Position numbers and translations under genes: made by a program. This document shows positions 534 to 20,569 of a stretch of DNA of 20,596 nt, in pieces. This stretch comes from Armatimonadota bacterium. GTDB taxonomy: Bacteria; Armatimonadota; UBA10988. The DNA lies in assembly GCA_016235455.1 (NCBI GenBank), contig JACRKZ010000112.1, positions 1-20,596 of the forward strand, written 5' to 3'. Within the stretch, counting starts at the first letter, position 1; every line of letters begins with the position of its first letter. The notes under the pieces were generated by a model. The model saw only the letters and a program-made list of their open reading frames with translations, made no database searches and was not told the origin of the DNA.

Positions 534-2104
534 CCGCGGGATCGTGGCTGCGCTGGCTGCTCCTGGCCGCCATCGCGGCCGCGGCACCCGACGGCTCGAT
601 TTTCGAGCCGGTGGACAAGCCGACGGCCATGTACTTCGCGCCACCCGCCGAAGCGCCGTTGCTCGCGTCGCCGATCAACACCTCGCTGTCGACCATCGCC
701 ACCAGCGAGTACCACGAACTGCTCATCATCGACGACCGACTGTGGGCCATAGGCAGTAACCGCGCGGGCATGATGGGCTTGGGCCACGCGGCACCCGAGG
801 TGCACACGCGGCCGGCGCGGGTCAAGGTGCCGGACGACCAGACCTTCGTCACGGCTGCCGCCGGCGGCTACCAGAGCCTGGCGGTCGACGCGCAAGGCCG
901 GGTGTGGAGCTTCGGCGGCAATCAGTTCGGGCAGCGCGGCGACGGTTCAGTGCCGCGACCCGAGACCCTGGCCACCGCCAAGGCCGAGGATACCTGGGGC
1001 GTGCCGGTCATGCTGACCAGCGACGCGGACGGTCAACCGTTCGGTGGACCCGCCGACCCCGTAGCGCAGGTGATCAGCGTGCTGTGGTTCAACCTGGCGC
1101 TCATGCGCAGCGGCGCTGTCTACTTCTGGGGCATGAACGGCGACGACGGCGCCGGCAACGACTCGCGCGGCATGGTCGGTGACGGCCGACCTCTGAGCCT
1201 CGACCGGTCGTTCGAGGCGCGCTCCGTGCGTCGGCCGACGCGTGTGCGCTTCCCGGTGGGCGTTTGCATCGAGCGCCTGGCCTCGTCGTCGAGCATGGCC
1301 GTGGCCATCGACCGCCACGGCGCGCTATGGACCTGGGGCGGCGGCGCGGGCTGGGGGCTGGGCGACGGCGAGCGTGGCGACGGTCGCGGCAACAGCAGCA
1401 CGCCAGGCCGGCTGCTTCAAGGGCGTTCGCGAGCCAAGGCGGCGCTCGAGCCGCTGCCGCGGTATGTCGACGCGACCGCCACGACCACCGCCAACTTCGC
1501 GATCGATGCCGACGGAGACCTGTGGGGATGGGGCATGATCCTGCCGGCGCGCGGCTTGGGGCGCGCCGACGAATGGGACCCGCAGGGCTGGCCCGTGAAG
1601 CTGACGCGCACGGGCAACGCGCACTTCGCCTCCCTCGATGCCCTGCTGGCTCAAGGTCACCGGCTGACGTCGGTCCAGGCCAGCCTGAACAGCATCCACG
1701 TCCTGGTCGACGACGGCTCGCTCTGGGGCTGGGGCGACGCCGCCATGGGCGAAGTGGGCGATGGCCACATCGTCAACTACCTGCGCGTGACGCCCAAGGA
1801 CGGCCGCAACGACGTACGCTGCGCCTGGGACTGGGGCGGCACCCGCGCGGTGGTGGCCGACGCGACGCGCATCATGACCCAGGTGCGTTGGTTCGCCACC
1901 AGCCAGTTCTCGTTCCACATCGTGGCCATGCGCCGCGACGGCACGCTCTACACCTGGGGCCGCAACGCCAACGGCGTGCTGGGCAACGGTCTGGACCCGA
2001 TGGACCGCGCGGGACCGGGCCTGCGGCGGTTCGCGCCGCTGGGCGAGACGTACACGCCGAACCTGCTCGACCGGCCGTATCCGGTGCGCGTGCAGCCGTT
2101 CTGA
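530..2104 (+). CDS. Secreted RCC1/BLIP-II-repeat beta-propeller protein (524 aa)
   Basis: ATG 530 overlaps the upstream stop; signal peptide MTAGSWLRWLLLAAIAAAA. Seven RCC1-like repeats: LWAIGSNRAGMMGLG, VWSFGGNQFGQRGDG, VYFWGMN..GMVGDG, LWTWGG..GWGLGDG, LWGWGM..GLG, LWGWGD..GEVGDG, LYTWGRNANGVLGNG. Confidence 0.85.
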   Translation: MTAGSWLRWLLLAAIAAAAPDGSIFEPVDKPTAMYFAPPAEAPLLASPINTSLSTIATSEYHELLIIDDRLWAIGSNRAGMMGLGHAAPEVHTRPARVKVPDDQTFVTAAAGGYQSLAVDAQGRVWSFGGNQFGQRGDGSVPRPETLATAKAEDTWGVPVMLTSDADGQPFGGPADPVAQVISVLWFNLALMRSGAVYFWGMNGDDGAGNDSRGMVGDGRPLSLDRSFEARSVRRPTRVRFPVGVCIERLASSSSMAVAIDRHGALWTWGGGAGWGLGDGERGDGRGNSSTPGRLLQGRSRAKAALEPLPRYVDATATTTANFAIDADGDLWGWGMILPARGLGRADEWDPQGWPVKLTRTGNAHFASLDALLAQGHRLTSVQASLNSIHVLVDDGSLWGWGDAAMGEVGDGHIVNYLRVTPKDGRNDVRCAWDWGGTRAVVADATRIMTQVRWFATSQFSFHIVAMRRDGTLYTWGRNANGVLGNGLDPMDRAGPGLRRFAPLGETYTPNLLDRPYPVRVQPF

Positions 2105-2778: not shown

Positions 2779-3099
2779 ATGAGCGGCAAGCAGCGCCCGG
2801 GCCGGTTCGACCGGCGGGCCTTCGCGGCGACGGTGGCGGCGTCGAGCGGGCTGGCCCTGCTGGTCACTGGGCTGGGCACGCACCTGGCGCACCACGACAA
2901 TGGTCAGGCGGGCTACCACGGCTGGCTGGCCGCACATGTGCTGGTGGCCCTGGCCTTTGTGCTCAGTTCCGCCTGGCACGGCGTGCTCAACGGTCGCGCC
3001 CTGACCCGCTACGTGGCGCGCCGCGAAGCGGTGCTGGCCTACGGGCTGGTGTTGCTGCTGCTGGGCCTGGGCATGGCGCATGGGCACGTGCCGCACTGA
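2779..3099 (+). CDS. Small His-rich membrane protein, DUF4405-like (106 aa)
   Basis: RBS GAGGAGG 2767-2773; three hydrophobic segments; W-x3-H-x13-H-x3-N pattern (WLAAHVLVALAFVLSSAWHGVLN) resembles the DUF4405/cytochrome-b-like helix. Confidence 0.75.
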   Translation: MSGKQRPGRFDRRAFAATVAASSGLALLVTGLGTHLAHHDNGQAGYHGWLAAHVLVALAFVLSSAWHGVLNGRALTRYVARREAVLAYGLVLLLLGLGMAHGHVPH

Positions 3100-3119
3100 G
3101 CGGCCGGTCTCATTTCCGC

Positions 3120-3148
3120 TTGCGATCCGCCGGCGCGCGGGCTATGCT
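3120..3148 (+). promoter_or_regulatory. Sigma70-type promoter, probably leaderless
   Basis: TTGCGA 3120-3125, 17 nt, TATGCT 3143-3148, ATG 3155 six nt later; no SD sequence. Confidence 0.6.
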
Positions 3149-3154
3149 TCGCGC

Positions 3155-3880
3155 ATGCTTCGACGCCACCCGCCGGGCCTGCGGCCGTACCCCAAGCCGC
3201 AGTTCTTCATGTCGTTAGGCGACATCCGCTTCTGGATTGATAGCGCCCACACGGACAGCGCCTTGGCTCGGCTGCGCGCCGAACACGGCACGGCCGACGG
3301 CATTGACGCGCTGTACCGGGAGCGGCCCGATCCGTGGGGCGCGACGCGCACGTGTTACCGCTACCAGCGGCTCAAGTACGAGCGTCTGACGGCGTTCATC
3401 CCCGCTCGACGCTACGAGCGCGTGCTCGACCTGGGCTGCGGCATCGGCGCCTTCACCCGCCACCTGGCGCCGCATGTCGGCGCCATCACTGGTGTGGAGT
3501 TGTCGGCGTCGGGCGTGCAACAGGCGCGTGATCTGTCCGTTGACCATGCCAACGCCGACTACCGCCAGGGCGATGTGTTGCACGTGGGCGACGCCGTCGG
3601 CCAGTCGACGTACGACCTGGTCATCCTGGCCGATGTGCTCTACTACCTGTCGCCGCTCAGCGCGGAGGTGCTCGATGGTGTCTGCGCCTCGGTCGCGGCC
3701 GCCATGGAGCCGGGCGGCGTGCTGCTGCTGGCCAACCACTGCGTGGGCACGCCGGACGCCGAGTCGCGCCAGACGCGGTTCATCCACAGCCGGTTCCGGC
3801 AGTCGTCGGCGTTCCGTGTGCTACGCGAGGCGTGGCGGCCGTTCTACCTGGCCACCATCCTGGAGCGTGTCGAGGAGTAG
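3155..3880 (+). CDS. Class I SAM-dependent methyltransferase, NodS-like (241 aa)
   Basis: SAM motif VLDLGCGIG; acidic GVELS; YDLVILADVLYYL; N-terminal LY...PDPWG...YQRLKY as in NodS-family proteins. Confidence 0.85.
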   Translation: MLRRHPPGLRPYPKPQFFMSLGDIRFWIDSAHTDSALARLRAEHGTADGIDALYRERPDPWGATRTCYRYQRLKYERLTAFIPARRYERVLDLGCGIGAFTRHLAPHVGAITGVELSASGVQQARDLSVDHANADYRQGDVLHVGDAVGQSTYDLVILADVLYYLSPLSAEVLDGVCASVAAAMEPGGVLLLANHCVGTPDAESRQTRFIHSRFRQSSAFRVLREAWRPFYLATILERVEE

Positions 3881-3886
3881 CCAAAG

Positions 3887-6424
3887 ATGGTTGGCCTGGT
3901 GGTGGCACTGCTCCTGACGGCGCCGGCCGCGGCCGATGAGCCGCCGCTGTTCCGCAACCCAGAGGTCCCGCTTGAGGCGCGCGTGGCTGACCTGGTAGGG
4001 CGCCTGACGCTTGAGGAGAAGGCGGCGCTGCTCAACCACCGCTCGGGCAACCCGACCCGCTTCGGCATCCGCTCCGACCAATGGAACCAGTGCCTCAACG
4101 GCGTCAAGTGGGATCGGCCGACCACGCTGTTCCCGGCGTGCATCGCGCTGGCCGCGACTTGGGACACAGCGCTCGTCCATGAGGTCGCCGGCGTGTTGGC
4201 CGACGAGGCGAGGGCCATCTACAACGGCTGGCACCAGGACCCCAACGCGCCTGGCGAGCACAAGGGACTGATCTACCGCGCGCCGGTGATCAACATCGGC
4301 CGCAACCCCAACTGGGGCCGTAACCACGAGGCCTGGGGCGAAGACCCACGGCTCACGGGCGCCATGGCCGTGGCCTATGTGCGCGGGCTCAACGGTGACG
4401 ACCCGCGGTACCTGAAGATCGCCGCGACGCTGAAGCACTACGCGGTCAACAACGTCGAGACCGACCGCACCAAACTCGACGCCCACGTGCCGGTGCGCGC
4501 CTTGCGCGAGTACTGGCTGCCACACTTCCGCGACGCCATCGTCGAGGGTGGCGCGCAGTCGGTCATGGCCTCCTACAACGCGCTCAACGGCACGCCGAAC
4601 AACATCAACCACTGGCTGCTGACCGATGTGCTCAAAGGCGAGTGGCATCACCAGGGATTCGTGGTGTCCGACCTGGGCGGCGTGCGCACCATGGTCGATG
4701 GCCACAGCGGCGGCCGCATGAGCGTGGTCGATGCCGTGGCGCAGTCGGTCACCGCCGGCTGCGACTTCTCGGACGCTGAGTATGAGGCGAACATCCCGGC
4801 CGCCGTGCGCGCGGGCAAGCTGAGCCCTGAGCGGCTGGACGACGCCCTGTCTCGCGTGCTCCGTGTGCGCTTCCGTCTCGGCGAGTTCGACCCGCCCGAG
4901 CGCGTGCCCTACAGTCGTATTCCCACATCGGTGATTGGCAGCGCGGCACACCGCGCCGTCGCGCTCAGGGCCGCGCAGCGCGCGGTCGTCCTGCTGACCA
5001 ATCGCGACAAGACGCTGCCGCTCGACCGCGCCGCGCTGCGCAGTATAGCGGTCATCGGGCCGCTGGCCGACAGGGTCGTGCTCAATGGCTACAACGGCCG
5101 CACCGGCATGACGGTCTCGGCCCTGGCCGGTCTGCGCGATCGGCTGGGCCCGGCGGTGCCGGTGCGCCACGAGCCCGGCTGCTCGGTCACCGGCCAGGCT
5201 GGCTCGGCGACGCAGATCGACAACGAGGCAGGCTTCGCCGGCGGACGCAGCCTCAAGTTCGACGCCGCCGGGCCGGGCGAATACATCGAGTTTGTGGTCG
5301 ACGTGCCCCAGGCCGGCGGCTACGGCGTGGCCCTGCGCCACAAGAGCTTCCCGAGCCGGGGCATCTACCAGTTGGCCATCGATGGCCGGCCGCAGGGCGA
5401 GCCGGTGGACTTCTACGCCGCGCCCGGCGACTGGGGCCAGACGGCGACCTTCGGCCAGGTCGAGTTGACCGCCGGCGCGCACCGTCTGCGATTCACGGTG
5501 ACCGGCAAGCGCGCCGCGGCCACCGGCTACTCGGCGCACTTCGACCAGATTGTCCTGAGCGGCCCCAGGGAGCTGCGCATCGAGGGTGAGCAGGCCCGCT
5601 TTGCCACCGGTGGCCGTGACGAGACCGAGGCCATCGCCGCGGCGGTGGCGGCGGCCAAGGCGTCGGATGTCGCCGTAGTCTGCGTCGGCACTGACGCGGC
5701 CGTCGAGCAGGAGGGACGCGATCGTGCCAAGCTCGGCCTGACCGGCCGGCAGGAGGAACTGGCGTTGGCGGTGATCGCCGCCAATCCGCGCACGGTCATC
5801 GTGCAGATGAGCGCTGGTCCGCTGACCGTGCCCCGACTGGCCGCCGCCGCGCCGGCCCTGGTGCAGGCCTGGTGGGCCGGTGAGGAGGGCGGCCACGCGC
5901 TGGCCGACGTGCTCCTCGGCGACGTCAACCCCGCGGGCCGGCTGCCCCATACGGTGTACGCCGACGAGTCACAGGTGCCACCGCGCGACGAGTACGACCC
6001 CGCACGCGGCTTCACGTACATGTACTGCCGAGGCGAGCCGCTGTTTGCCTTCGGCCATGGGCTGAGCTACACGCGCTTCGAGTACGGCAATCTCCGCGTC
6101 GAGCCCGGTGACAGCTTGAGCGTCCTGGTGGATGTGCGCAACGCTGGCGTCCGCGCGGGCGACGAGGTGGTGCAGGTCTACCTCAAGGCGCTCGACTCGC
6201 GCGTGCCGCGGCCCGCGCAGCAACTCCAGGGCTTCGCACGGCTCGCGCTGGCGCCAGGCGAGACCAAGACGGTGACCGTCGCGGTGCCGGTCGCGCGACT
6301 GGCCTATTGGGACGAGGCCACGCACGCGTTCATCGTCGAGCCCGGGCGGTACGAGGTGAGGGTGGGGGCGTCGTCGGCGGACATACGCGTGTCGATGACG
6401 ACAACTCTGGGGACAAGACCATGA
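3887..6424 (+). CDS. Secreted GH3 beta-glucosidase/beta-xylosidase with inserted CBM6/35-like module and C-terminal Fn3-like domain (845 aa)
   Basis: RBS GAGGAG 3872-3877; signal peptide. GH3 motifs RNPNWGRNHEAWGEDP, TLKHY, VMASYN, GFVVSD (nucleophile), EQEGRDR, NPAGRLP, FGHGLSYTRF and GDEVVQVY. Confidence 0.95.
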   Translation: MVGLVVALLLTAPAAADEPPLFRNPEVPLEARVADLVGRLTLEEKAALLNHRSGNPTRFGIRSDQWNQCLNGVKWDRPTTLFPACIALAATWDTALVHEVAGVLADEARAIYNGWHQDPNAPGEHKGLIYRAPVINIGRNPNWGRNHEAWGEDPRLTGAMAVAYVRGLNGDDPRYLKIAATLKHYAVNNVETDRTKLDAHVPVRALREYWLPHFRDAIVEGGAQSVMASYNALNGTPNNINHWLLTDVLKGEWHHQGFVVSDLGGVRTMVDGHSGGRMSVVDAVAQSVTAGCDFSDAEYEANIPAAVRAGKLSPERLDDALSRVLRVRFRLGEFDPPERVPYSRIPTSVIGSAAHRAVALRAAQRAVVLLTNRDKTLPLDRAALRSIAVIGPLADRVVLNGYNGRTGMTVSALAGLRDRLGPAVPVRHEPGCSVTGQAGSATQIDNEAGFAGGRSLKFDAAGPGEYIEFVVDVPQAGGYGVALRHKSFPSRGIYQLAIDGRPQGEPVDFYAAPGDWGQTATFGQVELTAGAHRLRFTVTGKRAAATGYSAHFDQIVLSGPRELRIEGEQARFATGGRDETEAIAAAVAAAKASDVAVVCVGTDAAVEQEGRDRAKLGLTGRQEELALAVIAANPRTVIVQMSAGPLTVPRLAAAAPALVQAWWAGEEGGHALADVLLGDVNPAGRLPHTVYADESQVPPRDEYDPARGFTYMYCRGEPLFAFGHGLSYTRFEYGNLRVEPGDSLSVLVDVRNAGVRAGDEVVQVYLKALDSRVPRPAQQLQGFARLALAPGETKTVTVAVPVARLAYWDEATHAFIVEPGRYEVRVGASSADIRVSMTTTLGTRP

Positions 6425-7857
6425 TTCGCAGGCAGTTTCTGGCCGCCACCGCCGCCGCGCCGTTGGCCCTGCGCGCCGCCGCGCAGCCGGCGCGTCGGCC
6501 CAACCTTCTGTTCGTCTTCCCCGACCAGTTCCGCGGTTCGGCCCTGGGCTTTCTGGGCCGCGAGCCGGTCCAGACTCCGCGGCTGGACCGCTTCTCGCAG
6601 GAGAGCCTGGTGCTCACCAGCGCCGCCTCCAACTACCCGGTCTGCAGCCCGTACCGGGCCATGCTGATGACCGGCTGCTGGCCACACCGCAACGGCGTGC
6701 TGGAGAACTGCACCTCCAACTCCGAGCCGTTCGGCTGCGAACTGAAAGCCGCCGACCGTTGCTGGTCGGATGTGCTGGCTGACCAGGGCTACAGCCTGGG
6801 TTACATCGGCAAGTGGCACTTGGACTCGCCGCGCAAGCCCTATGTCGACTGCGCCAACAACAAGGGGCCGCTGGCCTGGAACGAGTGGTGCGCGCCGGCC
6901 CGTCGTCATGGCTTCGACCACTGGTACGCCTATGGCACCTACGACGCCCACCTGCACCCGATGTACTGGGCCAACGACACGCCCCGCGACCAGCCGCTGT
7001 GGATCGACCAGTGGGGGCCCGAGCACGAGGCCGACCAGGCCATCTCCTACCTGCGCAACGAGCGCGGCCAGCGCAAGCCGGACCAGCCCTTCGCGCTGGT
7101 GGTCAGCATGAACCCGCCGCATACGCCGTACGGTCAGGTGCCAGCGCGCTATGTGGAGCGCTATGCCGGCAAGAAGACCGACGAGTTGATCACCAAGCGC
7201 TGCCTCGACCTCAAGGACGACGCGGCCATGGGCACCAAGCTGGCCCGCGCGCAGACGCGAAACTACTTCGCATGCATCACGGGCGTCGACGAGCAGTTCG
7301 GCCGCATCCTCGACGAGCTCGAGCGCCAGGGGCTGGCCGACAACACCATCGTCGTGTTCACCAGCGACCATGGCAACTGCCTGGGCTGCCATGACCAGGA
7401 AACCAAGAACGTGCCCTATGAGGAGTCGATGCAGATCCCGTTCCTCATCCGCTGGCCGGGCCATATCAAGCCGCGACACGACGATCTGCTGCTGTCCACG
7501 CCCGACATCGCACCGACGTTGCTGGACTTGCTGGGCCACAAGGCGCCTGCATCCATGCAGGGCGCCAGCTCTGCCGGGCTGATGCTCACCGGCGACGGAC
7601 CGCGCCCGACCTCACAGTTCTACCTGCACGTGCCGCTGGGCAAGCCCTCAGGCGGCCGGCGGGGTGTGCGCACCAACCGCCACACCATGGTCGTCGACTG
7701 GAACGAGAGCGGCGACCGCGATGTCACGTTGTTCGACAACCAGACCGACCCGGACCAGATGCACAACGTGGCCGGCGCGCAGCCCGAGGTCGTCGCGGCA
7801 CTGAAAGACGAACTGGCCGGCTGGCTCAAGCGAGCCGAAGATCGGTGGACGCTGTGA
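6421..7857 (+). CDS. Tat-exported formylglycine-dependent (S1 family) sulfatase (478 aa)
   Basis: ATGA overlap with the GH3 stop; twin-arginine signal MIRRQFL. Motifs PNLLFVFPDQ, CSPYRAMLMTG (CxPxR), GYIGKWHL, NPPHTPY and NTIVVFTSDHG. Confidence 0.95.
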   Translation: MIRRQFLAATAAAPLALRAAAQPARRPNLLFVFPDQFRGSALGFLGREPVQTPRLDRFSQESLVLTSAASNYPVCSPYRAMLMTGCWPHRNGVLENCTSNSEPFGCELKAADRCWSDVLADQGYSLGYIGKWHLDSPRKPYVDCANNKGPLAWNEWCAPARRHGFDHWYAYGTYDAHLHPMYWANDTPRDQPLWIDQWGPEHEADQAISYLRNERGQRKPDQPFALVVSMNPPHTPYGQVPARYVERYAGKKTDELITKRCLDLKDDAAMGTKLARAQTRNYFACITGVDEQFGRILDELERQGLADNTIVVFTSDHGNCLGCHDQETKNVPYEESMQIPFLIRWPGHIKPRHDDLLLSTPDIAPTLLDLLGHKAPASMQGASSAGLMLTGDGPRPTSQFYLHVPLGKPSGGRRGVRTNRHTMVVDWNESGDRDVTLFDNQTDPDQMHNVAGAQPEVVAALKDELAGWLKRAEDRWTL

Positions 7858-7920: not shown

Positions 7921-9894
7921 ATGCGCCTCCTTGCCCTGCTTTGCCTGCTTTCCGCCGCCCACGCCGCCGACGTGCCCCTGCCGCCGCCGGCGCAGCCCGT
8001 GCCGGCCAAGGTCGAGATCGCCCGAGGCAAGTTCCAGCCGACAGTGGAGTCGCTCCGGCACTACGTCTGCCCCGAGTGGTTCCGCGACGCCAAGCTCGGG
8101 TTCTGGGGCATCCTCGGCCCGCAGTCGCTGCCCGAGGCTGGCGACTGGTATGCCCGGCACATGTACGTCGAGGGCAGCCCGCAGTACCTGTTCCACCTGG
8201 CGCACTACGGCCATCCATCGCAGTCTGGCTACAAGAACCTGGCTGCCGGTTGGCGGCTGGACAAGTTCGACCCTGACCGGCTGATGGCGCTGTACAAGCA
8301 GGCCGGCGCCAAGTACTTCGTGGTGCTGGCCAACCACCACGACAACTGGGACAACTGGAACTCGCGCTACCACGCCTGGAACTCGGTCAATGTCGGCCCG
8401 CGTCGCGACCTGGTGGGCGAATGGGCGGCGGCCACCCGCCGTGCGGGCCTGCGGTTTGGTGTCACCGAGCATCTGGCGCGCAGCTACTCGTGGTTCAACA
8501 CCAACAAGGGCGCCGACAAGACCGGGCCGCGGGCCGGCGTGCCGTACGACGGCAACGACAAGCGCTACGAGGACTTGTACTTCCCGCCGCACGCCGACAC
8601 CTCCGCCGGCTACCCCGAGAATCCACCCGAATGGTGGCCGCGCGAATGGTTCTGGCGGATGCGCGACCTGCTCGACACCTACCGGCCCGACCTGATGTAC
8701 TCCGACGGCGGCGTGCCGTTTGGCGACGTAGGACTGAGCCTGTTTGCCCACTACTACAACGCCAACACCGCCTGGCATGGCGGGCGCCTGGATGCGGTCT
8801 ACAACATCAAGAGCTTCGCTGGCGGCGACTACGCCGACGGGTTCGCCGTGCGCGACCTGGAACGCGGCGTGCTGCAGGGCATCGGCGGCGCACCGTGGCA
8901 GACGGATACCTGCATCGGCGACTGGTTCTACAAGACCGGCATCACCTACAAGCCGGCCAAGATGGTGGTGGCCATGTTGGCCGACATCGTCGCCAAGAAC
9001 GGCAACCTGCTGCTCAACATCCCGCTCAAGCACGACGGCAGCATCGACGCGGGCGAGGAGCGGTTCCTGGCCGATCTGGGCGCCTGGATGGCGGCCAACG
9101 GCGAAGCCATCTACGGTACGCGGCCCTGGTTGGTCTTTGGCGAGGGCCCGCACCAGAGCCGTGGCGGCCACTTCAACGAGGGTCTGTTCACCAGCATGAC
9201 GGCCGCGGACATCCGCTTCACAACCCGCGGCGGTGCGCTGTACGCCATCGTGCTGGCGCCGCCGAGCGACGGCGTGGTACGAATTCGCTCGCTGGCCAAG
9301 CCGGTCGGTCCGCCGACCAACCGCATCGCCAATCTGCGCCTGCTGGGCAGCCACCCCGCCGTGACCTGGTCGCAGGATGGCGAGGCGCTGACCGTTCGCC
9401 TGCCGGCTGGCTATCGTGGCGACGGCCCGCTGGTGATCAAGGTCGCCGGGCGCGACCTGCGGCCGGTAGTGGCCGAGTGGTTCGTCACGCCTACCGCTGA
9501 CGGTCACTTGCTGTGCGCTGCCGCCGATGCGCGCATTCATGGCCCATCGCCAGTGTATGAGCAGGACGGCGCCAAGGACCAGATCGGCTACTGGGCCGAC
9601 GCCAAGGACTACGTTGAATGGCCGCTGGCCATCGAACGCCCGGGCGTGTACGCTGTGCGCGTGACCTACTCCTGTGCCGCGGGTGCCGAAGGCAGTGCCT
9701 TCCGGGTGGTGGCTGGCGATCAGGCGGTGGCTGGGCGGTCGGCATCGACCGGCTCGTGGGCCGCGTACCGCACGGATGAACTGGGCCGTGTGAAGCTCGG
9801 TGCCGGGCGGGTAGCGCTTGCGGTCAAGCCCTTGGCCGACCCGCCATGGCGGGTGATTGGGCTCAGGTCGGTGGAGCTGCGGCCGGTGGAGTAG
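7921..9894 (+). CDS. Secreted GH29 alpha-L-fucosidase-family protein with C-terminal CBM6/35-like domain (657 aa)
   Basis: Signal peptide; PEWFRDAKLG, KQAGAKYFV, NHHDNWDNWNS, PDLMYSDG (nucleophile Asp), WQTDTCIG.W.Y, DIVAKNGNLLLN and NGEAIYGTRPW. C-terminal IGYW...DYVEW...PGVY beta-sandwich. Confidence 0.92.
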   Translation: MRLLALLCLLSAAHAADVPLPPPAQPVPAKVEIARGKFQPTVESLRHYVCPEWFRDAKLGFWGILGPQSLPEAGDWYARHMYVEGSPQYLFHLAHYGHPSQSGYKNLAAGWRLDKFDPDRLMALYKQAGAKYFVVLANHHDNWDNWNSRYHAWNSVNVGPRRDLVGEWAAATRRAGLRFGVTEHLARSYSWFNTNKGADKTGPRAGVPYDGNDKRYEDLYFPPHADTSAGYPENPPEWWPREWFWRMRDLLDTYRPDLMYSDGGVPFGDVGLSLFAHYYNANTAWHGGRLDAVYNIKSFAGGDYADGFAVRDLERGVLQGIGGAPWQTDTCIGDWFYKTGITYKPAKMVVAMLADIVAKNGNLLLNIPLKHDGSIDAGEERFLADLGAWMAANGEAIYGTRPWLVFGEGPHQSRGGHFNEGLFTSMTAADIRFTTRGGALYAIVLAPPSDGVVRIRSLAKPVGPPTNRIANLRLLGSHPAVTWSQDGEALTVRLPAGYRGDGPLVIKVAGRDLRPVVAEWFVTPTADGHLLCAAADARIHGPSPVYEQDGAKDQIGYWADAKDYVEWPLAIERPGVYAVRVTYSCAAGAEGSAFRVVAGDQAVAGRSASTGSWAAYRTDELGRVKLGAGRVALAVKPLADPPWRVIGLRSVELRPVE

Positions 9895-9908
9895 GCCGCG
9901 AGGAGACG

Positions 9909-10868
9909 ATGGTGGGGAAGCACGTTCGACAGACGCTTGGGATGGTTCTGCTGCTGGGGCTCGTGCTGTTGGCGCGCCCGGCGCGGGCCGAGGATACGTT
10001 CACGCTGGCCATCGTGCCCGATGTGCAGCCCGAGGTGGCCACCCCGCAGTTCCAGGCGCGCCTGCAGTGGCTGGTGGATAACCGCGCCAAGCTCAACCTG
10101 AAGGCCGTGCTCCAGGTGGGCGACCTGATGAACTTCAACGACGAGGTGCAGTACAAGCACCAGAGCGAGGCGCTGAAGGTCCTGGACAACGCCAAACTGC
10201 CGTACGCCATGTGCCTGGGCAATCATGACACCGCCGCGGTCAAGTTCGACGGCGGCAGCGCCGCGCCGGGCAATGTCAACCAGAACCTGCGCAACACCGC
10301 GCGCTACAACCAGTACTTCCCCTTGAGCCGCTTTGCCATGGCGCGCGACACCTTCGAGGCGCTCAAGATCGACAACTCGGTCCATCTGTTCGAGGCGGGC
10401 GGCCTCAAGTGGTGCATCATCAACCTGGAGCTGTGGGCGCGGACTGATGTCATCGATTGGGCCAAGCGCATGGTGGAGAAGTACGCGGACCGCAATGTCA
10501 TCTTCCTCACGCACGCGCACCTCAACGGCGATTTGACCATCCAGCAGAACAACGGCGGCTATGGCAACAACAGCCCGCAGCTGATCTTCGACCAGGCCAT
10601 GAAGCCCTATGCCAACGTGCAGATGGTGTTCTGCGGGCACGCCGGCGTGCAGGGCTACCGCACCGACAAGGCCGCCGACGGCCACCCGATCCACTCATTC
10701 CTGCAGTGCTACCACGACAACACCACCAACCCCACGCGCCTGCTGGAGATCGATACCAAGAACGGCACCATGAAGTCTCGTGTCTACTGCCAGACGCTGG
10801 ACACGGACAAGGCCGACGGCAGCACGATGACGGTGACGGGCGTGGCCTGGGTCAAGCCCAAGGGCTAG
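9909..10868 (+). CDS. Secreted calcineurin-like metallophosphoesterase (319 aa)
   Basis: RBS GAGGAG 9900-9905; signal peptide ending ARA. Metal motifs PDVQ, VGDLMN, GNHD, LTHAH and FCGH. Confidence 0.9.
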   Translation: MVGKHVRQTLGMVLLLGLVLLARPARAEDTFTLAIVPDVQPEVATPQFQARLQWLVDNRAKLNLKAVLQVGDLMNFNDEVQYKHQSEALKVLDNAKLPYAMCLGNHDTAAVKFDGGSAAPGNVNQNLRNTARYNQYFPLSRFAMARDTFEALKIDNSVHLFEAGGLKWCIINLELWARTDVIDWAKRMVEKYADRNVIFLTHAHLNGDLTIQQNNGGYGNNSPQLIFDQAMKPYANVQMVFCGHAGVQGYRTDKAADGHPIHSFLQCYHDNTTNPTRLLEIDTKNGTMKSRVYCQTLDTDKADGSTMTVTGVAWVKPKG

Positions 10869-10879
10869 AGGAGTAACCA

Positions 10880-12175
10880 ATGCTGCCGATGCTGACCTGC
10901 CTGCTCATCGCTGCCGCGCCGACGTCGCCGCGCTACGTCTTCGCGCACTACATGGTGGCCATCCCGACCTACGGCGGTGACAGCAAGGTCGAGGACTACA
11001 TGCGCGAAATCCAGGCCGCACAGTCGCGCGGCATTGACGGGTTCGCGCTCAACTGCGGCGGCTGGACCGCGCGCGAGCCGCACTACAAGGCGCGCACGCT
11101 GCTCATCTACGAGGCGGCCAAGCGGCTGAACAGCGGGTTCAAGCTGTTTGTCTCGGCCGACTACTGCTGCGGCCTGACCCTCGACGAGACCAAGGACATC
11201 CTCACGAGCCTCGCCGACCACCCCAACCAGTTCCAGGTGGGTGGCAAGCCGCTGCTCTCCACCTTCACCGGCGAGGGCGCCGACAACCAGCAGGGCCGCG
11301 ATCTGTGTGCGTTCCTGGACAGGCTGGGCGGCGACAAGGGCCGGGCCTGCGTGTTCGTGCCGTACTTCTACCCGCGGCCCAACGTCACCGAGCATCCCAG
11401 CCCAGAGGTGGCGGCCCAGGTGCTGCGTGACCATCCCACGCTCGACGGCTTCTTCTACTTCGGGGCGGCCGGCACCGACACGCAGTTGGCCAGCTCCAAC
11501 CGCAACTGCGCCAAGGCCTGGCTGGGCGCGGGCAAGCTGTTCATGGCGTGCGCCACGCCGTACTACCGTGGCCTCGGCGGCAACTACCGCTGCTTCGAGA
11601 CCAACGGCTTCGAAGGGTTCGCCAAGCAGTTCGTGGGCGCCATCGAGGACCAGGCCACCTGGATCGAGATTGTCACCTGGAACGACTGGGGCGAGGCCAG
11701 CTACGTCGCGCCGTTCGGCGAGCCCTCTGCTACGGAGCTGTGGGGCGGCCACTGGGGCAAGATACTGTCGCACGTCGCCTATCTGGATGCCATGCGCTAC
11801 TACATCGACTGGTACAAGACCGGTCAGGCACCCAAGATCACCGCCGACAAGCTGTTCTACGCCTATCGCCCGCACCCCAAGGCGCTGCTCGGCCCGACCA
11901 AGGCCCGCCCCGGCGGCGCCGATGCGTTGCTGGACAAGGTCTTCGTCACGGTCTACCTGACCGCGCCTGCCACGCTGACGGTGACCAGCGGCGACGCCGA
12001 GCAGCGCTTCGACCTGACCGCCGGCGTGAAGCATGTCGCCCTTGACGCCAAGCCCGGCGCCCAGCGCTTCCGGCTGATGCGCGGCGGCGCGACGCTGGTC
12101 GACAAGACCGGTGAGCTGCCCATCTCGGCCGATGAGGCGTTCGGCAACTTCAATATGTTTGCCGGACAGAGCTGA
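10880..12175 (+). CDS. Secreted GH71 endo-alpha-1,3-glucanase (mutanase)-like protein (431 aa)
   Basis: RBS GAGGAG; signal peptide. GH71 motifs VFAHYMV, GIDGFALN, FKLFVSAD, KPLLSTF.G and IEIVTWNDWGEASY; C-terminal YRPHPK...DKVFVTVYLTAPATLTVTSG sandwich. Confidence 0.9.
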   Translation: MLPMLTCLLIAAAPTSPRYVFAHYMVAIPTYGGDSKVEDYMREIQAAQSRGIDGFALNCGGWTAREPHYKARTLLIYEAAKRLNSGFKLFVSADYCCGLTLDETKDILTSLADHPNQFQVGGKPLLSTFTGEGADNQQGRDLCAFLDRLGGDKGRACVFVPYFYPRPNVTEHPSPEVAAQVLRDHPTLDGFFYFGAAGTDTQLASSNRNCAKAWLGAGKLFMACATPYYRGLGGNYRCFETNGFEGFAKQFVGAIEDQATWIEIVTWNDWGEASYVAPFGEPSATELWGGHWGKILSHVAYLDAMRYYIDWYKTGQAPKITADKLFYAYRPHPKALLGPTKARPGGADALLDKVFVTVYLTAPATLTVTSGDAEQRFDLTAGVKHVALDAKPGAQRFRLMRGGATLVDKTGELPISADEAFGNFNMFAGQS

Positions 12176-12211: not shown

Positions 12212-14926
12212 TTAGCGCAGCGTCGCCGTATCCTTGGCCCAGTCGATGGCCACAGTGCAGGGCTTGCCGTCGGTGAGGTAGGTCGCCACGCTGACGCTGG
12301 ACTCCTTCCAGTCGACCTGCCCTTCGAGCTTGCCGCCGCCCAGGTCGGCGCGCGTGCGCAGCGCCACCACGCCGCGCGCCACCACCTGGCCCGCGCGCGC
12401 CGCGCCAACGCCGGCCGGCTTGAGCCGCACCACGGCGGTGCACAGGCTGGTGGCAAGGCGCTGCGGCGTGTCGAGCACCTCCCAGTCGCCATCGCCCAGG
12501 CTGGCGAGCATCAGGTCGCCATCGACCTTGAACCCGCGGCCGGGCACGGCCAGCGTGCGCTCGGCTGGCAAGTCCAGGCCGCGCAGCTCCAGGCTCGGCG
12601 TCGTCGCGTCGGTGGTCGTGATGGTGCGGCGCCGGTCGTTGAAGATGTCATTGCCCAGCCGCCAGTCGAGCAGGTCCAGGCTCTTGACCTGCACATCGGC
12701 CAAAGCGCTCCACTCGCTGATCAGCAGCGTGGTACGGCCGTCGGGCAGCGCCACGCAGGCGATGCGCTGCCGTAGCGCGTTGGTCGGCGCGGTGTTGATC
12801 GTCTCCGGGTTCCACTTGTCGTCCTGCAGCACCGAATTGACCACGATGCCGCCCTTGGCCACCCAGTCCAGAATGGTCCCGTAGTGCGGCGCCGCCGCGG
12901 TGGCGGTGCGGTCAATGAACAGCACGTCGATCGCCGCGAGTTGGTCGGCGAGTTTGGCGCCGCGGGCGCTGCCAGTGGTGGAGATGGCGACGGTCTTCAC
13001 CTTGGCCGCGTCCAGCGCGTTCTTGAGGTGGGCCTCGCCGGCCACATAGCCGCAGCGCCGGCCGGGCGCACGGGCATAGGCCAGCAGATTGGCGAACAGC
13101 GCCTTGGCCAGCGGGTCACCGGCGGCCGCCTTCTCGTCGAGGTTGGTCATCGAGACCACGAACTTGCCGGTGCCGAGCTTGGCTTCGAACAGCGAGGGGC
13201 CGCCGCGTGTGTTGCGGGCCAGCACGGTCCAGCCAGGCCCAGCCTTGGCCACGCTGTCCAGGTCGGTCAGGCCGGTCAAGCTGGTGATCTGGTTGGGCGT
13301 GGTGAACAGCGGATGCTTGGGGTCGGCCATGCTGCCCAGCGGGATGTTGTCGTCCTGCAACTCCAGCCGCAAGGGCGATGGCGGCCGGTCCGCGGCGCCG
13401 TGGCGCACCTCGCCGACGGACGCGAAACCGCCCTCGAACGTGGTCTCGTGGTGATGAGCGACGGTGGTGCCCGGCTTGGTGCGGTCACCAAACGCCACGT
13501 TGCCGGCCAGGCTGTGGTTCCACTCCAGCATGTCCTCGCCGGTGTCGGAGCAGACCATGCCGGTCACCGGTCCGCCGATGGAGCGCCAGCACCAGCCGAC
13601 CAGCCGTTGCGGATCGCGTCGCATGGCGAGCTCGCAGTACGGGCTGACGAACGTGCCCACGTTCTTGGCCGCCAACACCTCCCGTGAGGTGGGATGGGGC
13701 GGATCCTTCAGCTCGTGCATCATCGCGGCGATGGTCAGGTTGGCCGCGCAGTCGGTCTCCCATTCCGACGGCCAGCGTTCCATGATGCCCTTGGTGAACC
13801 GGCCGGAGAAGAAGGAGCCGTCGTTCCAGACCAGTTGCTCCCGCTCGAAGGTGCCCACGCGCAGGCGCTCGATGAGGCGCGCGTCGGCATCGCCGTAGAC
13901 CGTCTGCATGTGCACCAGCGCGGGCAAGATGAAGTACATGCCGTAGGCGTAGCGCGGCCAGTCCTTGCCGCCGACATAGGCGAACCGACCGTTCCACAGC
14001 GCGAACTGCTTGAGCCTCGACCAGACCTGGGGCAGGTTGTGATAGACCGCCGCGGGAGCCGCGCGTTGGTGGCTGGCATAGGCATACCAGACCCAGCCCA
14101 TGGAATGCTGCGGGCAGATCTGGTAGCAGATGTGGAATGGGCCGTGGTTCTCGATGGTGTAGTCCGGATGGATCGACGGGCCGCCGATCCACTGGTTGAT
14201 CGGCTTGCCGTCAACGAGCGTTGTGTTGCTCAGGTCTGCGGTCACGGAGAACGTGTTGAAGCACAGGGTGTCGAGTGCCGCGCGCCAGCCGGGCGCCTTC
14301 TCGTGGCGCGGATAGAGGTTCAGCGCCCAGGCCACGACTTCGGCGTCCCAGGCGTTCTCTTCGGCCTTGGTGTCGCCGTACTCCTGGTAGCGCGGCTTCA
14401 GGCCGATGTGCCGGCTCGCCTCGTGCTGCACCACCTTGTCGAACAGCGCCAGCTCGGCCGGCGTGAGGTCGGCCTTGAGCCGCAGCACCGCGGGCACCAT
14501 GCGGCTGACCCACCAGGCCGACTGCCAGTGGTTGCCCCAGGGCTTGTCGTCGGTACATTTGAGGTCGCCGACCACATGGGTGCGCAGGCGGTAGCGGATG
14601 GCCGCCAGAGCGTGGTCCTTCACCGTCGCCAGGCTCACGCCGCTGAGCGCGGGATCGTACTTGGCGTTGGTTGCCAGCCAGGCGTAGGTCAGCGTGAAGT
14701 TGGCCAGCGTCCGCTGGCCGTTCTCGTCGCTACGGCCGTCGCCAAAGTAGCCGACCTTGGTGTCACCGCCGTAGTTGCCGTGCCAGCCGCGCTCGGCGTA
14801 ACGCGGGAAACGGCCGACGATTCTCGTGTAGTCATCAGCGGCAGGATAGGCGGGCGAATCCCATGGGCCGGCGGGTGGTCCACCCGCCAGGGTCAGCAGC
14901 ATGCTCAGCAGTAGCGCAGGGGTCAT
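12212..14926 (-). CDS. Large secreted hypothetical protein: PL8/heparinase-like alpha-toroid plus beta-sandwich, with inserted GATase-like domain (904 aa)
   Basis: Start at ATG 14926 (MTPALLLSMLLTLAGG signal peptide; GGGAG upstream). Helical N-half with WQSAWW, DTKAEENAWD and DYTIENHGPFHICY; beta-rich C-half. The CDS is solid but the function is inferred. Confidence 0.8.
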   Translation of the reverse strand: MTPALLLSMLLTLAGGPPAGPWDSPAYPAADDYTRIVGRFPRYAERGWHGNYGGDTKVGYFGDGRSDENGQRTLANFTLTYAWLATNAKYDPALSGVSLATVKDHALAAIRYRLRTHVVGDLKCTDDKPWGNHWQSAWWVSRMVPAVLRLKADLTPAELALFDKVVQHEASRHIGLKPRYQEYGDTKAEENAWDAEVVAWALNLYPRHEKAPGWRAALDTLCFNTFSVTADLSNTTLVDGKPINQWIGGPSIHPDYTIENHGPFHICYQICPQHSMGWVWYAYASHQRAAPAAVYHNLPQVWSRLKQFALWNGRFAYVGGKDWPRYAYGMYFILPALVHMQTVYGDADARLIERLRVGTFEREQLVWNDGSFFSGRFTKGIMERWPSEWETDCAANLTIAAMMHELKDPPHPTSREVLAAKNVGTFVSPYCELAMRRDPQRLVGWCWRSIGGPVTGMVCSDTGEDMLEWNHSLAGNVAFGDRTKPGTTVAHHHETTFEGGFASVGEVRHGAADRPPSPLRLELQDDNIPLGSMADPKHPLFTTPNQITSLTGLTDLDSVAKAGPGWTVLARNTRGGPSLFEAKLGTGKFVVSMTNLDEKAAAGDPLAKALFANLLAYARAPGRRCGYVAGEAHLKNALDAAKVKTVAISTTGSARGAKLADQLAAIDVLFIDRTATAAAPHYGTILDWVAKGGIVVNSVLQDDKWNPETINTAPTNALRQRIACVALPDGRTTLLISEWSALADVQVKSLDLLDWRLGNDIFNDRRRTITTTDATTPSLELRGLDLPAERTLAVPGRGFKVDGDLMLASLGDGDWEVLDTPQRLATSLCTAVVRLKPAGVGAARAGQVVARGVVALRTRADLGGGKLEGQVDWKESSVSVATYLTDGKPCTVAIDWAKDTATLR

Positions 14927-14937
14927 CCTCGGGCTCC

Positions 14938-14965
14938 CGGCCGCGCGTTCAACGCCGCGCGGCCG
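14938..14965. other. Intergenic stem-loop between the MATE gene and the 904-aa gene
   Basis: CGGCCGCGCG-TTCAACGC-CGCGCGGCCG: perfect 10-bp stem, directly adjacent to the downstream gene's SD; no U-tract. Confidence 0.5.
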
Positions 14966-14982
14966 AATCCTGCGCCCAAATG

Positions 14983-16416
14983 CTAGACCGTGACGCTGCC
15001 CATCTCGATCACGCGCATATGGTGCCAGCGACGCGAGCGGAAACGAGCAAACAGCGCACAGGCCAGCACGGTGACCATCACCGTGGCCGCGGTCCAAAGC
15101 GCGTACAGCCCCTGGCCCAGGTGGTCCAGCAGGCCCAGCGTCAGCAGGAACCCGCTGTACAGCCCGACGCTGAGCACCAGCGTGGCCCGCGTGTCGCCGG
15201 CGCCGGTCAGCGCGCCCATGAGGATCAGGTTGGCCGCATCGGTCAGACAGTAGGCCGCGACGAAACGCAGCAACACCACGCCCGTGGCGATGGTGGCCTG
15301 CGCGGCGGGGTCGGTGGCCCAGTGGGGCATGAACATGTGCAGCAGCGACCGCGGCGCCAGCAGGAAGACCAACGTTGCCAGCAGCATCCAGCCCTGGGCA
15401 ATCTTCAGCCCTGTCCAGGCCACACGTTCCGACAGATCGGGGCGGAGCCGTCCTTGGCCCTGGCCGACCTGCGTGGCCACCGCCGCCGACAGCCCAAACA
15501 GTGGGAAGAAGGCCAGCGAGTTGATGCGCCAGACGATGTTGGTGGCGGTCAGCGCCGACTCGCCCAGGCGACCGACGATGAGCAGAAACGCCGTCCAGCC
15601 GATGACCTCGACGGTGAACCTCATACCGTTGGGCAGCCCATAGCGCAGCAGCCGTCCCAGCAGTTCACGGTCGAAGGCTCGGTTGCGCCACGTCCCGTAG
15701 ACCGCCCGATTGCGCGGCGAGAGGAACAGCAGCGTCAGCCACAGGGCGCACCAGCCCTGGGCACCGATGGTGGCCAGAGCCGCGCCGCGCAGACCGAGCC
15801 CCGCATGCCCCCCCACGCCGAAGATCAGGGCCCAGGCCAGGACCGCGTTCACGACCTGCGCGCTGAGCTGCACCGCCATCAACGTGCGGTTCTCGCCGCG
15901 CCCGGAAAAGAAGCCCGACAACGAACTGCTCAACAGCGCCAGGGGCGCGCCCAGACAGGCGATGTTGAAGAACGCCGCCTCATTGCTCGCCAGACGTGGC
16001 TCATGGCCCACCCAGCGAAAGACGCCGGAGAGCGGCCAGGCGATCACCGCCAGCAGCAGCCCCGCGCCCAGCGCGAAGCGGATGGCCTGCCACACGACCA
16101 GACTGATGCGCTCGGGCCGACCAGCGCCGTGGTACTGCGCCACGAACGTCGAGGAGAAGCCCGCCGCGCCGATGAACATGCTCATCAGCAGCCAGCAGAA
16201 CATCGACGCCGGCCCGTGTGCCGCCATGGCCGACGGCGAGTACCAGCTCAGGAACAGCCCATCGAGCAGGTGCATCAGCGTCTGCCCGGTAGACGCGAGC
16301 ACCAGCGGCACCGCCAGGCTCAGCAAGGAGCGAAGCGTGCCCAACTCCCCGTGGCCACCCTCGATGCGCACGGGCTGAGGCTCCAACTCGCTGTATTCGA
16401 CCAATGCTTCGCTCAT
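14983..16416 (-). CDS. MATE-family efflux/flippase transporter (477 aa)
   Basis: About 12 TM segments; LAVPLVL, VAQYHGAG, GLGLRGAALAT, LRYGLPNG, VGQGQG and GAGDTR MATE motifs; SD GAGGGAG. Confidence 0.93.
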   Translation of the reverse strand: MSEALVEYSELEPQPVRIEGGHGELGTLRSLLSLAVPLVLASTGQTLMHLLDGLFLSWYSPSAMAAHGPASMFCWLLMSMFIGAAGFSSTFVAQYHGAGRPERISLVVWQAIRFALGAGLLLAVIAWPLSGVFRWVGHEPRLASNEAAFFNIACLGAPLALLSSSLSGFFSGRGENRTLMAVQLSAQVVNAVLAWALIFGVGGHAGLGLRGAALATIGAQGWCALWLTLLFLSPRNRAVYGTWRNRAFDRELLGRLLRYGLPNGMRFTVEVIGWTAFLLIVGRLGESALTATNIVWRINSLAFFPLFGLSAAVATQVGQGQGRLRPDLSERVAWTGLKIAQGWMLLATLVFLLAPRSLLHMFMPHWATDPAAQATIATGVVLLRFVAAYCLTDAANLILMGALTGAGDTRATLVLSVGLYSGFLLTLGLLDHLGQGLYALWTAATVMVTVLACALFARFRSRRWHHMRVIEMGSVTV

Positions 16417-19268: not shown

Positions 19269-19308
19269 ACAGGACGTAGGCGGCAGGTGCGCACGGCCTA
19301 CGGCCCTG
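19266..19308 (-). terminator. Probable intrinsic terminator of the GH4 gene
   Basis: CGTAGGC (19275-19281) / GCCTACG (19296-19302) stem, imperfectly extendable, overlapping the stop codon and followed on the minus strand by TGTTT. Confidence 0.45.
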
Positions 19309-20569
19309 AGCGTTGGTCCCACGCCGCCAGCAGTTCGTCGCACAGCGATTCCGCCTGGGCCAGTGACGAGCAGCAGCCGTCGAGCACGAGCGCCTGGACG
19401 ACCAGGTCGCGCTCGCCGCTGAGTGCGGCGTCGACGACCACCTCGGCCCACTGGAACCGTGTGGCCAGCGTGCCCAGCAGGCCGGGCGAGAGCGGCGGCA
19501 TGGCAACCGGCCGCAGCGTGCCGCCGGTAGCCACGGCCGGGCTCTCGACCACCACGCCGTCGGGTAGACCGGGCACCTGGCCGGTGTTGGGCAGGTTGGC
19601 CGAGTAGATCGCGCCGTCATCGGCACGGATGCTGCCGATAATGGCCATGACCTGCTCGTGCTCGCCCCCCGACGGGTCGACGTTGACCGGCTCCTCGCCG
19701 CGCGCCACGGCGCCCATCCGGGCGAACTGCGCGTCGCCGCCGGCGATGGTGCCCTCGAAGCTGAAGGCATCGTGCCCGAGGCGCTGCTCGCCATAGGTGC
19801 CGTCGCGGTAGAACTGCGGGAAGAACTCGACGATGTGCCGGTCGAGCACCGCCGGGAACGCGCCGAACAATCGCAGGAGCTGCCAGGCGAACGGGTTGTC
19901 GTCGCGCTCCTCGGCCAGTTTGCGGAGCCGCGGTAGCTGGTCGTGGCCGTCCACGGTGATGCGAGTGAACCAGGTCAGGTGGTTGATGCCGACGGCCTCA
20001 TAGCGCAGGTCAGCCTGCGGCACGCCCAGCGCGTCAGCCAGGTAGTGCGCCACATGGTTCACGCCGTGGCACAAGCCGATGACCGGCGCGCCGGTGGCCT
20101 TGACGATGGCGCGGCAGCACACCGCCATCGGGTTGGAGTAGTTGAAGAACAGGGCCTCGGGCGCCAGGTCCAGCACGTCGCGCGCGATGGCCACCAGCGC
20201 CGGCACCATGCGCAGCCCACGGCTCGTGCCGCCGGGACCGACGGTGTCGCCCACCGGCTGGTGGATGCCGTGCCGGCGCGGGATGAAGACGTCGTGCTCC
20301 CAGGCCCGGCGCCCACCGACGCCGACGGTCATGATGATCGCCGTGGCGCCCGGCAGCAACTTACGCCGGTCGGTGTCGGCCCGCAGCGTGATCGGCGCGC
20401 CGCTGGCGGCGATCATCGCCGCGCAGACGCCGCGCGCGACCTCCAGCGCCGCCGGATCGATGTCGACCAGGCGCAGTTCCGCCTGCCACCCGGTGCGGAT
20501 CAGGTCGGCTGTCAGCCCGTGCGTGAACGAGGCGCTGCCGGCGCCGATCAGAACGATGGCTTCGGTCAT
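19298..20569 (-). CDS. GH4 NAD+/Mn2+-dependent glycosidase, alpha-galactosidase (MelA)-like, cytoplasmic (423 aa)
   Basis: IVLIGAGS..F Rossmann motif; [12 protein letters not shown]; NYSNP; IGLCHG (metal Cys); GINHLTW; [18 protein letters not shown]. Confidence 0.93.

Follow-up and report, generated by a model that had tools for sequence, protein, structure and literature searches.

How does a domain come to lie inside the loop of another enzyme with its two halves in the wrong order? This question is raised by a gene on a 20,596-nucleotide contig of an Armatimonadota bacterium (GenBank assembly GCA_016235455.1, contig JACRKZ010000112.1); the whole of this stretch was analysed and is called the window below. 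The gene encodes a lyase-like protein of 904 amino acids in which an insert of about 200 residues separates two strands of a beta-sandwich. An initial annotation of the locus had read the insert as a circularly permuted class-I glutamine amidotransferase (GATase)-like domain in a putative lyase. Taken as a whole, the observations are very probably best explained by a circular permutant of an accessory domain whose canonical order is half B followed by half A, nested in a loop of the host enzyme.

All of the peptides quoted in the initial annotation fall in one open reading frame (ORF) on the minus strand. The enclosing ORF occupies 12212-15097 (961 codons, counted from an upstream TTG), and database entry P0002 is the identical 904-residue protein, with its start, MTPALLL, at window position 14926; residues are numbered here from that start. 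The insert had been placed at 12781-13395, where it is indeed found, though the upper end of that interval is one base out of frame. The position given for the RAPGR linker was exact. The parts of the protein are as follows, with hidden Markov model (HMM) positions referring to the model of the canonical domain described below.

12212-14926, minus strand: whole lyase-like gene, 904 amino acids from MTPALLL, with a hydrophobic N-terminus; stop codon at 12212-14
13664-14926, minus strand: signal-like N-terminus and alpha/alpha toroid, residues 1-421, with helices 30-421 in the model
13397-13663, minus strand: first beta-sandwich part, residues 422-510, with strands E424-511 in the model, ending with GFASVGEVRHG
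13397-13429, minus strand: peptide GFASVGEVRHG, residues 500-510 (557-567 in the 961-codon ORF)
12776-13396, minus strand: insert, residues 511-717, in-frame limits
13058-13396, minus strand: half A, insert residues 1-113, reading PSPLRLE...HPLF...GTGKFVV...LFANLLAYA plus the linker RAPGR, equivalent to HMM 92-202
13361-13381, minus strand: peptide PSPLRLE, near the start of half A
13058-13072, minus strand: linker RAPGR, residues 619-623
12776-13057, minus strand: half B, insert residues 114-207, reading RCGYVAG...IDVLFIDR...WVAKGGIVV...LQDDKWNPETI, equivalent to HMM 3-91
13037-13057, minus strand: peptide RCGYVAG, start of half B
12797-12814, minus strand: peptide WNPETI, near the end of half B
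12215-12775, minus strand: remaining beta-sandwich, residues 718-904, with strands E716-903 in the model, starting with LRQRIACVALPDG
12737-12775, minus strand: peptide LRQRIACVALPDG, residues 718-730, the strand after the insert

A profile of the insert, built from an 18-row alignment (the window sequence with 17 further insert-bearing homologues out of 19, P0012 and P0020 being omitted), was run against 1.84 billion representative proteins. It returned 448 matches at E <= 1e-3, 71 at E <= 1e-10 and 9 at E <= 1e-30, and relatives of canonical order were reached at library-wide E values down to 5e-30, a signal that chance would not produce. As judged from profile similarity, the domain is thus shown to belong to a large family of 448 representative clusters at the first of these thresholds. 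In the canonical order, half B (GY..G ... D.l..D/G ... yV..GG.lv..LQD..W.P) precedes half A (PYPL.l ... HPlF..PN.I ... GkG ... l..NL..Y). The order of the segments, re-scored locally, was tabulated for 146 listed matches.

77 of 146: half B (profile 110-193) then half A (7-110) within 40 residues
36 of 146: one stretch across the A-to-B junction
22 of 146: half A only, mainly short fragments
4 of 146: co-linear with the insert (P0025-P0028)
3 of 146: B then a full A-B unit (2), or A then a full A-B unit (1)
3 of 146: half B only
1 of 146: B and A 70 residues apart

With the fragment P0029 and with P0016, P0017, P0021 and P0022, the co-linear group amounts to 9 clusters, all of which we assume to be members of the host family.

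An HMM of the canonical order, made from 77 canonical-order domains and 203 positions in length, gave two swapped matches in each of the 18 native inserts (insert 7-110 to HMM 92-202, and insert 110-199 to HMM 3-91), which bears out the proposal that the halves are exchanged relative to the canonical domain. Once the halves were put back in the canonical order, a single envelope over HMM 5-201 was obtained in 16 of the 18; one of the remaining two reaches position 173 and the other starts at 10. For the window protein, this re-ordering, which had been suggested as a check, turned two native pieces into one end-to-end piece and raised the best envelope from 93 to 134 bits, with the summed score moving from 131.7 to 134.0. 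Comparison with a canonical protein, P0031, by BLASTP gave the same picture. Insert residues 8-113 align with P0031 187-301 (40% identity over 115 columns, E 1e-19) and insert residues 175-200 with P0031 161-186. These two high-scoring segment pairs abut between P0031 residues 186 and 187, so that the end and the beginning of the insert are neighbours in the canonical protein. HMM and BLASTP therefore agree on the cut that had been drawn between WNPETI and PSPLRL with a short linker joining the original termini: ...LQDDKWNPETI lies on one side of it and PSPLRLE... on the other, and the join of the old termini reads ...LLAYA-RAPGR-RCGYVAG.... It is because of the A-B order, the joined old termini and the new termini at the W.P..l/PYPL junction that we take the insert to be a circular permutant nested in a host loop.

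The canonical relatives (among them P0030, P0031, P0035, P0153 and P0095) are homologous to the insert in both halves, and the motifs GY..G, yV..GG, LQD..W.P, PYPL, HPlF..PN.I, GkG and NL..Y are common to the two. Both are also tied to carbohydrate-active enzymes. The canonical domain has the order B-A and is mostly C-terminal, whereas the insert has the order A-B and is nested in a hairpin; the insert clade further carries a DR motif after the third strand of half B, where canonical relatives have G-S/T-E/Q-A. The C-terminal home in PIG-L proteins and carbohydrate-active enzymes, which the initial annotation had named, was recovered: the canonical-order domain is the last module of PIG-L proteins (5 of 10 tested matches carry an N-terminal PF02585), of PcRGLX-like proteins (5 of 8 tested) and of glycoside hydrolase (GH) family 2 enzymes (2 of 8 tested). 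In one GH88 protein it lies in the N-terminal part, and it also occurs in proteins with NEW3 domains. No Pfam model matched the canonical-order domain above its curated cut-off in the proteins tested. A check of 20 short canonical proteins below the cut-offs gave the following sub-threshold matches.

DUF4350: 5 of 20
DUF2194: 4 of 20
Glyco_hydro_42M: 2 of 20, best E 0.009
DUF4159: 2 of 20
GLMA_2nd: 2 of 20
GATase1_like: 1 of 20

Most of these weakly matched families belong, as we assume, to the class-I glutamine-amidotransferase-like clan. Searched against the PDB, a profile of the canonical domain likewise drew weak matches (E 0.02-0.5) from a mannanase, GH42 beta-galactosidases, GlmA and a ThuA-like protein.

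The insert also behaves as a unit. Modelled alone from the 18-row alignment, it forms one confident domain (pLDDT, the predicted local distance difference test score, 93.6; pTM, the predicted template modelling score, 0.91). The pTM value indicates that the two halves fold together, and the alternative of two separate domains was rejected on this basis. That linear HMM annotation misses the domain is confirmed by searches of Pfam and NCBIfam with the whole protein, the insert, each half and both host parts, in which no family scored above its curated cut-off. The rows at E <= 1 were sub-threshold throughout (Methyltransf_24 at 13.9-17.3 bits, cut-off 26.3; the NCBIfam beta-galactosidase model NF049890 at 12 bits, cut-off 1500). 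A Pfam scan of the 18 insert sequences at E <= 10 found no family in more than two members and no IMPa_N_2, and the insert profile gave chance-level matches only (PknG, aspartase) against PDB sequences. The lead returned for the insert by the ESM Atlas was a DUF2194 cluster at 0.92.

What fold, then, has been permuted? A structure search of the insert model against 48,161 chains matched model residues 73-204 to the N-terminal ends of peptidase E, dipeptidase E and cyanophycinase chains at Z 7.1 to 4.7 (peptidase E best, Z 7.1 over 111 aligned residues; cyanophycinase Z 4.7). In the peptidase E and cyanophycinase structures it is the first 150 residues that align with half B. The GATase TM1158 (1o1y, chain 98-227, Z 4.3) and MetA (2vdj, chain 156-296, Z 4.4) align instead with model residues 9-112. 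Each of these GATase-like proteins thus covers one half of the insert model, and the two sets do so at opposite ends of their own chains. This pattern of half-matches is the one expected for a permutant, with scores in the range that the tool calls common. The class-I GATase-like proteins considered (S51 peptidase E, cyanophycinase, TM1158, MetA; GH42 domain B, ThuA, DUF4350, DUF4159) probably share an alpha/beta fold with the insert, and we take the families among them (S51, GH42 domain B, ThuA, DUF4350, DUF4159) to form one superfamily or clan. They differ from the insert in that its order is permuted, it lacks the catalytic triad and the scores are modest. Since the fold scores lie in the common range, the designation class-I GATase-like is likely but not proven. 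Of the description given in the initial annotation, the permutation stands on sequence comparison; the class-I GATase part rests on middling fold scores and sub-threshold profiles.

A stronger match in the same search was the N-terminal domain of IMPa, the M88 O-glycopeptidase of P. aeruginosa (PDB 5kdv, 5kdw, 5kdx and 7jtv), with Z 10.8-11.3, rmsd (root-mean-square deviation) 3.2-3.4 A and 163-167 residues aligned. Foldseek likewise placed IMPa first, at an E value of about 7e-4. The many RecA-like and Rossmann-like chains ranked below it were rejected as, in our view, generic alpha/beta matches. The IMPa match raises another account, in which the insert is no permutant at all: it would belong, co-linearly, to the IMPa N-terminal family (PF18650), and its likeness to B-then-A proteins would reflect shared sub-motifs. 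The IMPa chains are indeed co-linear with model residues 24-202 and lie well above the next match (Z 7.1). PF18650 (IMPa_N_2), on the other hand, gave no match at E <= 10 to the insert, its halves or the 18 members, and identity to IMPa is 11-13%. A six-frame search of the window's genome with PF18650 at E <= 0.01 was also empty, a weak negative given that 14 control genomes were empty too. Both halves, moreover, are matched by B-then-A proteins at E values that reach 5e-30; half A is 40% identical, and the two matches meet exactly. We consider the shared-motif account highly improbable. A full-length co-linear counterpart, named in the initial annotation as a finding that would speak against it, exists in structure (IMPa, Z 11.3); no sequence family covers the insert. 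The permutant and IMPa readings would be compatible if IMPa_N_2 were itself a permuted relative.

The IMPa domain resembles the insert in strand order, as no other solved domain among the matches does, and belongs to an enzyme that acts on glycoconjugates; it differs in sharing no HMM match and in its setting, a metallopeptidase in which it lies close to the N-terminal end and is not enclosed by a lyase-like sandwich. According to PMC10550946, PF18650 is the Pfam family of this IMPa domain, and a ligand is bound at an exosite in it. In an inactive IMPa mutant, an O-glycopeptide was bound in the N-terminal domain, for which a recognition role was proposed (available part of bioRxiv 10.1101/2021.09.09.459412). 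The available part of PMC7518263 holds nothing on this domain. As an observation in its own right, the IMPa N-terminal domain may be an unrecognised circular permutant of a GATase-like accessory domain.

Several points weigh against reading the insert as a permuted class-I GATase-like domain. IMPa, through chain residues 81-266, is the sole strong match among solved structures and is co-linear with the insert; the A-then-B topology is therefore already in the PDB and is not unprecedented. Judged by structure only, it might be grouped with the IMPa domain instead of being called a permutant. The link to class-I GATases is weak, as Z scores of 4-7 are commonly seen and the profile matches are sub-threshold (E 0.002-0.5). 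Re-ordering brings the summed HMM score no more than about 2-4 extra bits, since HMMER sums the separate pieces in any case, and the gain is one of contiguity. The canonical set was picked with the insert profile and is thus not an independent family definition, though the segment order in its proteins is independent of the query. Lastly, P0025-P0029 were assumed to belong to the host family from their length and the position of the match, with a reading of the sequence in addition for P0026 and P0029.

Circular permutation of the insert having been argued from its relatives, its placement in the host can be read from proteins with and without it. In the full-length AlphaFold2 model (22-homologue alignment; pLDDT 90.4, pTM 0.85) the insert lies between strands E500-511 and E716-726 of the beta-sandwich, and the model is confident across both junctions. 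A word-index search gave 23 relatives, of which 22 were aligned (P0006, a 502-residue fragment, was left out). In the columns of query residues 495-735, 20 of the 22 have 230-249 residues, P0023 has 40, and the distant and poorly aligned P0024 has 86. BLASTP with P0023 gives 45% identity over residues 24-509 and resumes at residue 715 after four P0023 residues. The host family was found in 39 of 201 sampled genomes of the same phylum, the window's own genome counted; matches run through the insert in 8 genomes, and in many others end at residue 507-517. Sixteen loci from genomes of the phylum were aligned (the insert-bearing locus of G069 was left out). In six of them (42-63% identity) the insert is present and fills its columns with 197-203 residues; the other ten have 6 residues in the 204 insert columns, a short turn (..DG.P..), followed by only 161-234 residues. 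Overall, 197-204 residues in 7 insert-bearing proteins stand against 5-6 in 11 insert-less relatives; host homologues that join the flanking strands directly, which the initial annotation had proposed to look for, do exist. From these insert-less relatives, the strands before and after the insert would pair as a hairpin.

An A-then-B insert occurs at the equivalent hairpin in 19 other database proteins. The architecture might nevertheless be an artefact, a mis-assembly or chimeric contig joining two genes, given that the source is a draft genome of 185 contigs. We put the chance of this close to nil: the insert recurs at the same hairpin in those 19 proteins and in the six loci of other genomes, no stop codon interrupts the frame, and the confidence of the model holds over both junctions. 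The assembly chimera was rejected on the conservation of the insert across genomes. A FastTree phylogeny of 18 sequences, midpoint-rooted and computed on host-only columns, places the insert-bearing proteins in one clade (support 1.000) beside P0023 and other insert-less proteins. This fits a single acquisition, and the permutant appears to have arisen once.

Some individual proteins deserve mention. The window's genome also holds an insert-less host paralogue (G000:C69:8682-9947, minus strand; 31% identity over residues 27-459); one organism thus has the two forms side by side. P0021, at 1515 amino acids, is a fused form of the host, with a lyase-like unit, the permuted insert at 1128-1323 and an N-terminal extension of about 600 residues that holds a PF16153 domain. 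In P0017, an Arg/Pro-rich stretch directly after the insert replaces the conserved ALPDG strand, which looks like a frameshift or sequencing error. Elsewhere in the genome of the window, a weak half-A-like match (L003, G000:C118:29792-30112, minus strand, E 5.5e-4) lies in an 824-codon frame with one in-frame TGA and could be a broken gene or two genes.

The host itself is modelled as an alpha/alpha toroid (helices 30-421) and a beta-sandwich (strands 424-511 and 716-903), with the alpha/beta unit of the insert between the two sandwich parts. Foldseek of the full model against the PDB gave 78 matches at E <= 0.001, and those listed were polysaccharide lyases throughout: chondroitin AC, xanthan, hyaluronate, alginate, heparinase III/HepC, GAGase II and chondroitin ABC lyases, at E 4.7e-9 (1rw9, the best match) to 4.9e-5 and identities of 7-11%. 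ESM Atlas leads for the N-terminal 510 residues pointed to heparinase II/III-like, ulvan-lyase-like and PL8-like (PL, polysaccharide lyase family) clusters at 0.86-0.89, and a whole-protein profile of the 22 homologues matched no PDB chain at E <= 1. The predicted model therefore supports, at the level of fold only, a toroid-plus-sandwich polysaccharide lyase architecture and the earlier designation as a putative lyase. The known toroid-plus-sandwich enzymes (chondroitin AC, xanthan and hyaluronate lyases; the alginate lyases Alg17c and Atu3025; heparinase III/HepC) share the two-domain architecture of the host; they differ from it in sequence (7-11% identity), and no Pfam lyase family matches the host. 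The insert was not noticed in the matched lyases, where no check aimed at it was made.

The toroid holds most of the invariant polar and aromatic residues. Across 18 relatives with and without the insert, these are N224, E259-N260-H261, H265, Y268, H274, Y317, K321, D322, R325, Y326, Y328, R350 and E353, and others; the conserved toroid residues are identical whether the insert is present or absent. N260, H261, H265, Y268 and R325 are candidate lyase residues, and an invariant Asn/His/Tyr/Arg set would presumably suit a lyase in the manner of the PL8, PL15 and PL17 mechanisms. Against a lyase assignment, the numerous invariant Glu and Asp residues of the toroid would also fit a glycoside hydrolase, and the host may be either a lyase or a hydrolase.

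What might the insert add to such an enzyme? Its invariant columns among the 18 insert sequences are H28, P29, W56, G65, P67, G77, L100, N103, R163 and G182; none is a Cys, a Ser, a Glu or another acid, and the Cys-His-Glu triad of active class-I amidotransferases is thus not conserved among the 18. Because no Cys, Ser or acid is invariant, the insert is unlikely to hold an active site of the amidotransferase or peptidase type. In favour of a second catalytic activity, of the amidase, esterase or peptidase kind known from class-I GATases and S51 peptidases, are the fold likeness to peptidase E and cyanophycinase (Z up to 7.1) and the invariant His of the HP motif and Arg of the DR motif within the permuted clade. 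The missing nucleophile and acid argue against it, as does the replacement of DR by G-S/T-E/Q-A in canonical relatives, and we think such an activity very unlikely. With no conserved nucleophile, the insert would itself be non-catalytic, and we give about even odds to the proposal that it provides a polysaccharide-cleaving enzyme with a surface that binds substrate or shapes the cleft. Such a surface would most likely flank the active site; a comparable case is the N-terminal domain of IMPa, which binds a ligand.

The insert could instead serve oligomerisation, on the model of the GATase-like domain in GH42 beta-galactosidases, which Pfam describes as a trimerisation domain. Canonical relatives match Glyco_hydro_42M weakly (2 of 20, best E 0.009) and reach GH42 beta-galactosidase chains at E 0.04-0.3; these GH42 matches are sub-threshold, and nothing speaks directly against oligomerisation. 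We regard this role as rather unlikely, and any further role as less likely still. The GH42 contact runs between different domains of neighbouring subunits, so that an oligomerisation role here would need the whole protein, and a complex prediction with two copies of the insert scored 0.00 against a mark of 0.42, which is no evidence either way.

Returning to the origin of the permuted insert, the most likely route would be the classical one of a tandem duplication giving B-A-B-A, after which the middle A-B unit was captured into the host hairpin. Two adjacent canonical domains, as found with the canonical HMM, are held by 29 of 38 junction-type proteins (P0029 excluded), so B-A-B-A tandem arrays are common. 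The A-to-B junction of the insert aligns without change of length to the inter-domain junctions of such arrays (profile 68-178 against 114 residues of P0137). One finding weighs against this route: in the canonical proteins closest to the insert, the domain occurs singly and not in tandem. The duplication route is thus plausible, not demonstrated.

The gene lies in what is a glycan-degradation neighbourhood, with the following genes around it in the window.

263-2104, plus strand: RCC1-repeat ORF, 613 amino acids, with an RCC1-like domain (E 9e-41)
3080-3880, plus strand: class-I S-adenosylmethionine (SAM) methyltransferase, after the RCC1-repeat ORF
3887-6424, plus strand: GH3
6307-7857, plus strand: sulfatase
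7921-9894, plus strand: GH29 alpha-L-fucosidase
9846-10868, plus strand: metallophosphoesterase
10880-12175, plus strand: GH71
14983-16416, minus strand: MATE transporter, same strand as the lyase-like gene and immediately upstream of it
19298-20569, minus strand: GH4

The neighbouring GH3, sulfatase, GH29, GH71 and GH4 genes suggest a complex, possibly sulfated, polysaccharide as the substrate.

None of the ingredients is new in itself: circular permutation, nested domains and GATase-like accessory modules in carbohydrate-active enzymes have all been described. Their combination in a host for which no family model exists appears undescribed in the literature searched, where we found no description of a permuted class-I GATase-like domain or of such an insertion in a lyase. 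The locus records a domain rearrangement through canonical relatives at 40% identity, tandem arrays as presumed intermediates, a single permuted clade and sisters with an empty hairpin. It may be of use in testing models of permutation by duplication, in benchmarking permutation-aware aligners and in engineering nested domains. It also exposes a blind spot of linear HMM annotation, in that both a host of 904 amino acids and a domain of about 200 amino acids are without a Pfam match above cut-off, and points to two families that await models, the host and the accessory domain.

As an enzyme in a glycan-degradation cluster, the host is a candidate for a new polysaccharide-cleaving activity. A bolder possibility, which we advance tentatively and consider less probable than its contrary, is that the host is the founding member of an undescribed polysaccharide-cleaving family in which one clade once gained a permuted glycan-binding exosite or lid, with the N-terminal domain of IMPa as a second permutant. 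If true, the insert would be a built-in glycan-binding exosite or lid that changes the substrate range or the mode of action of the enzyme.

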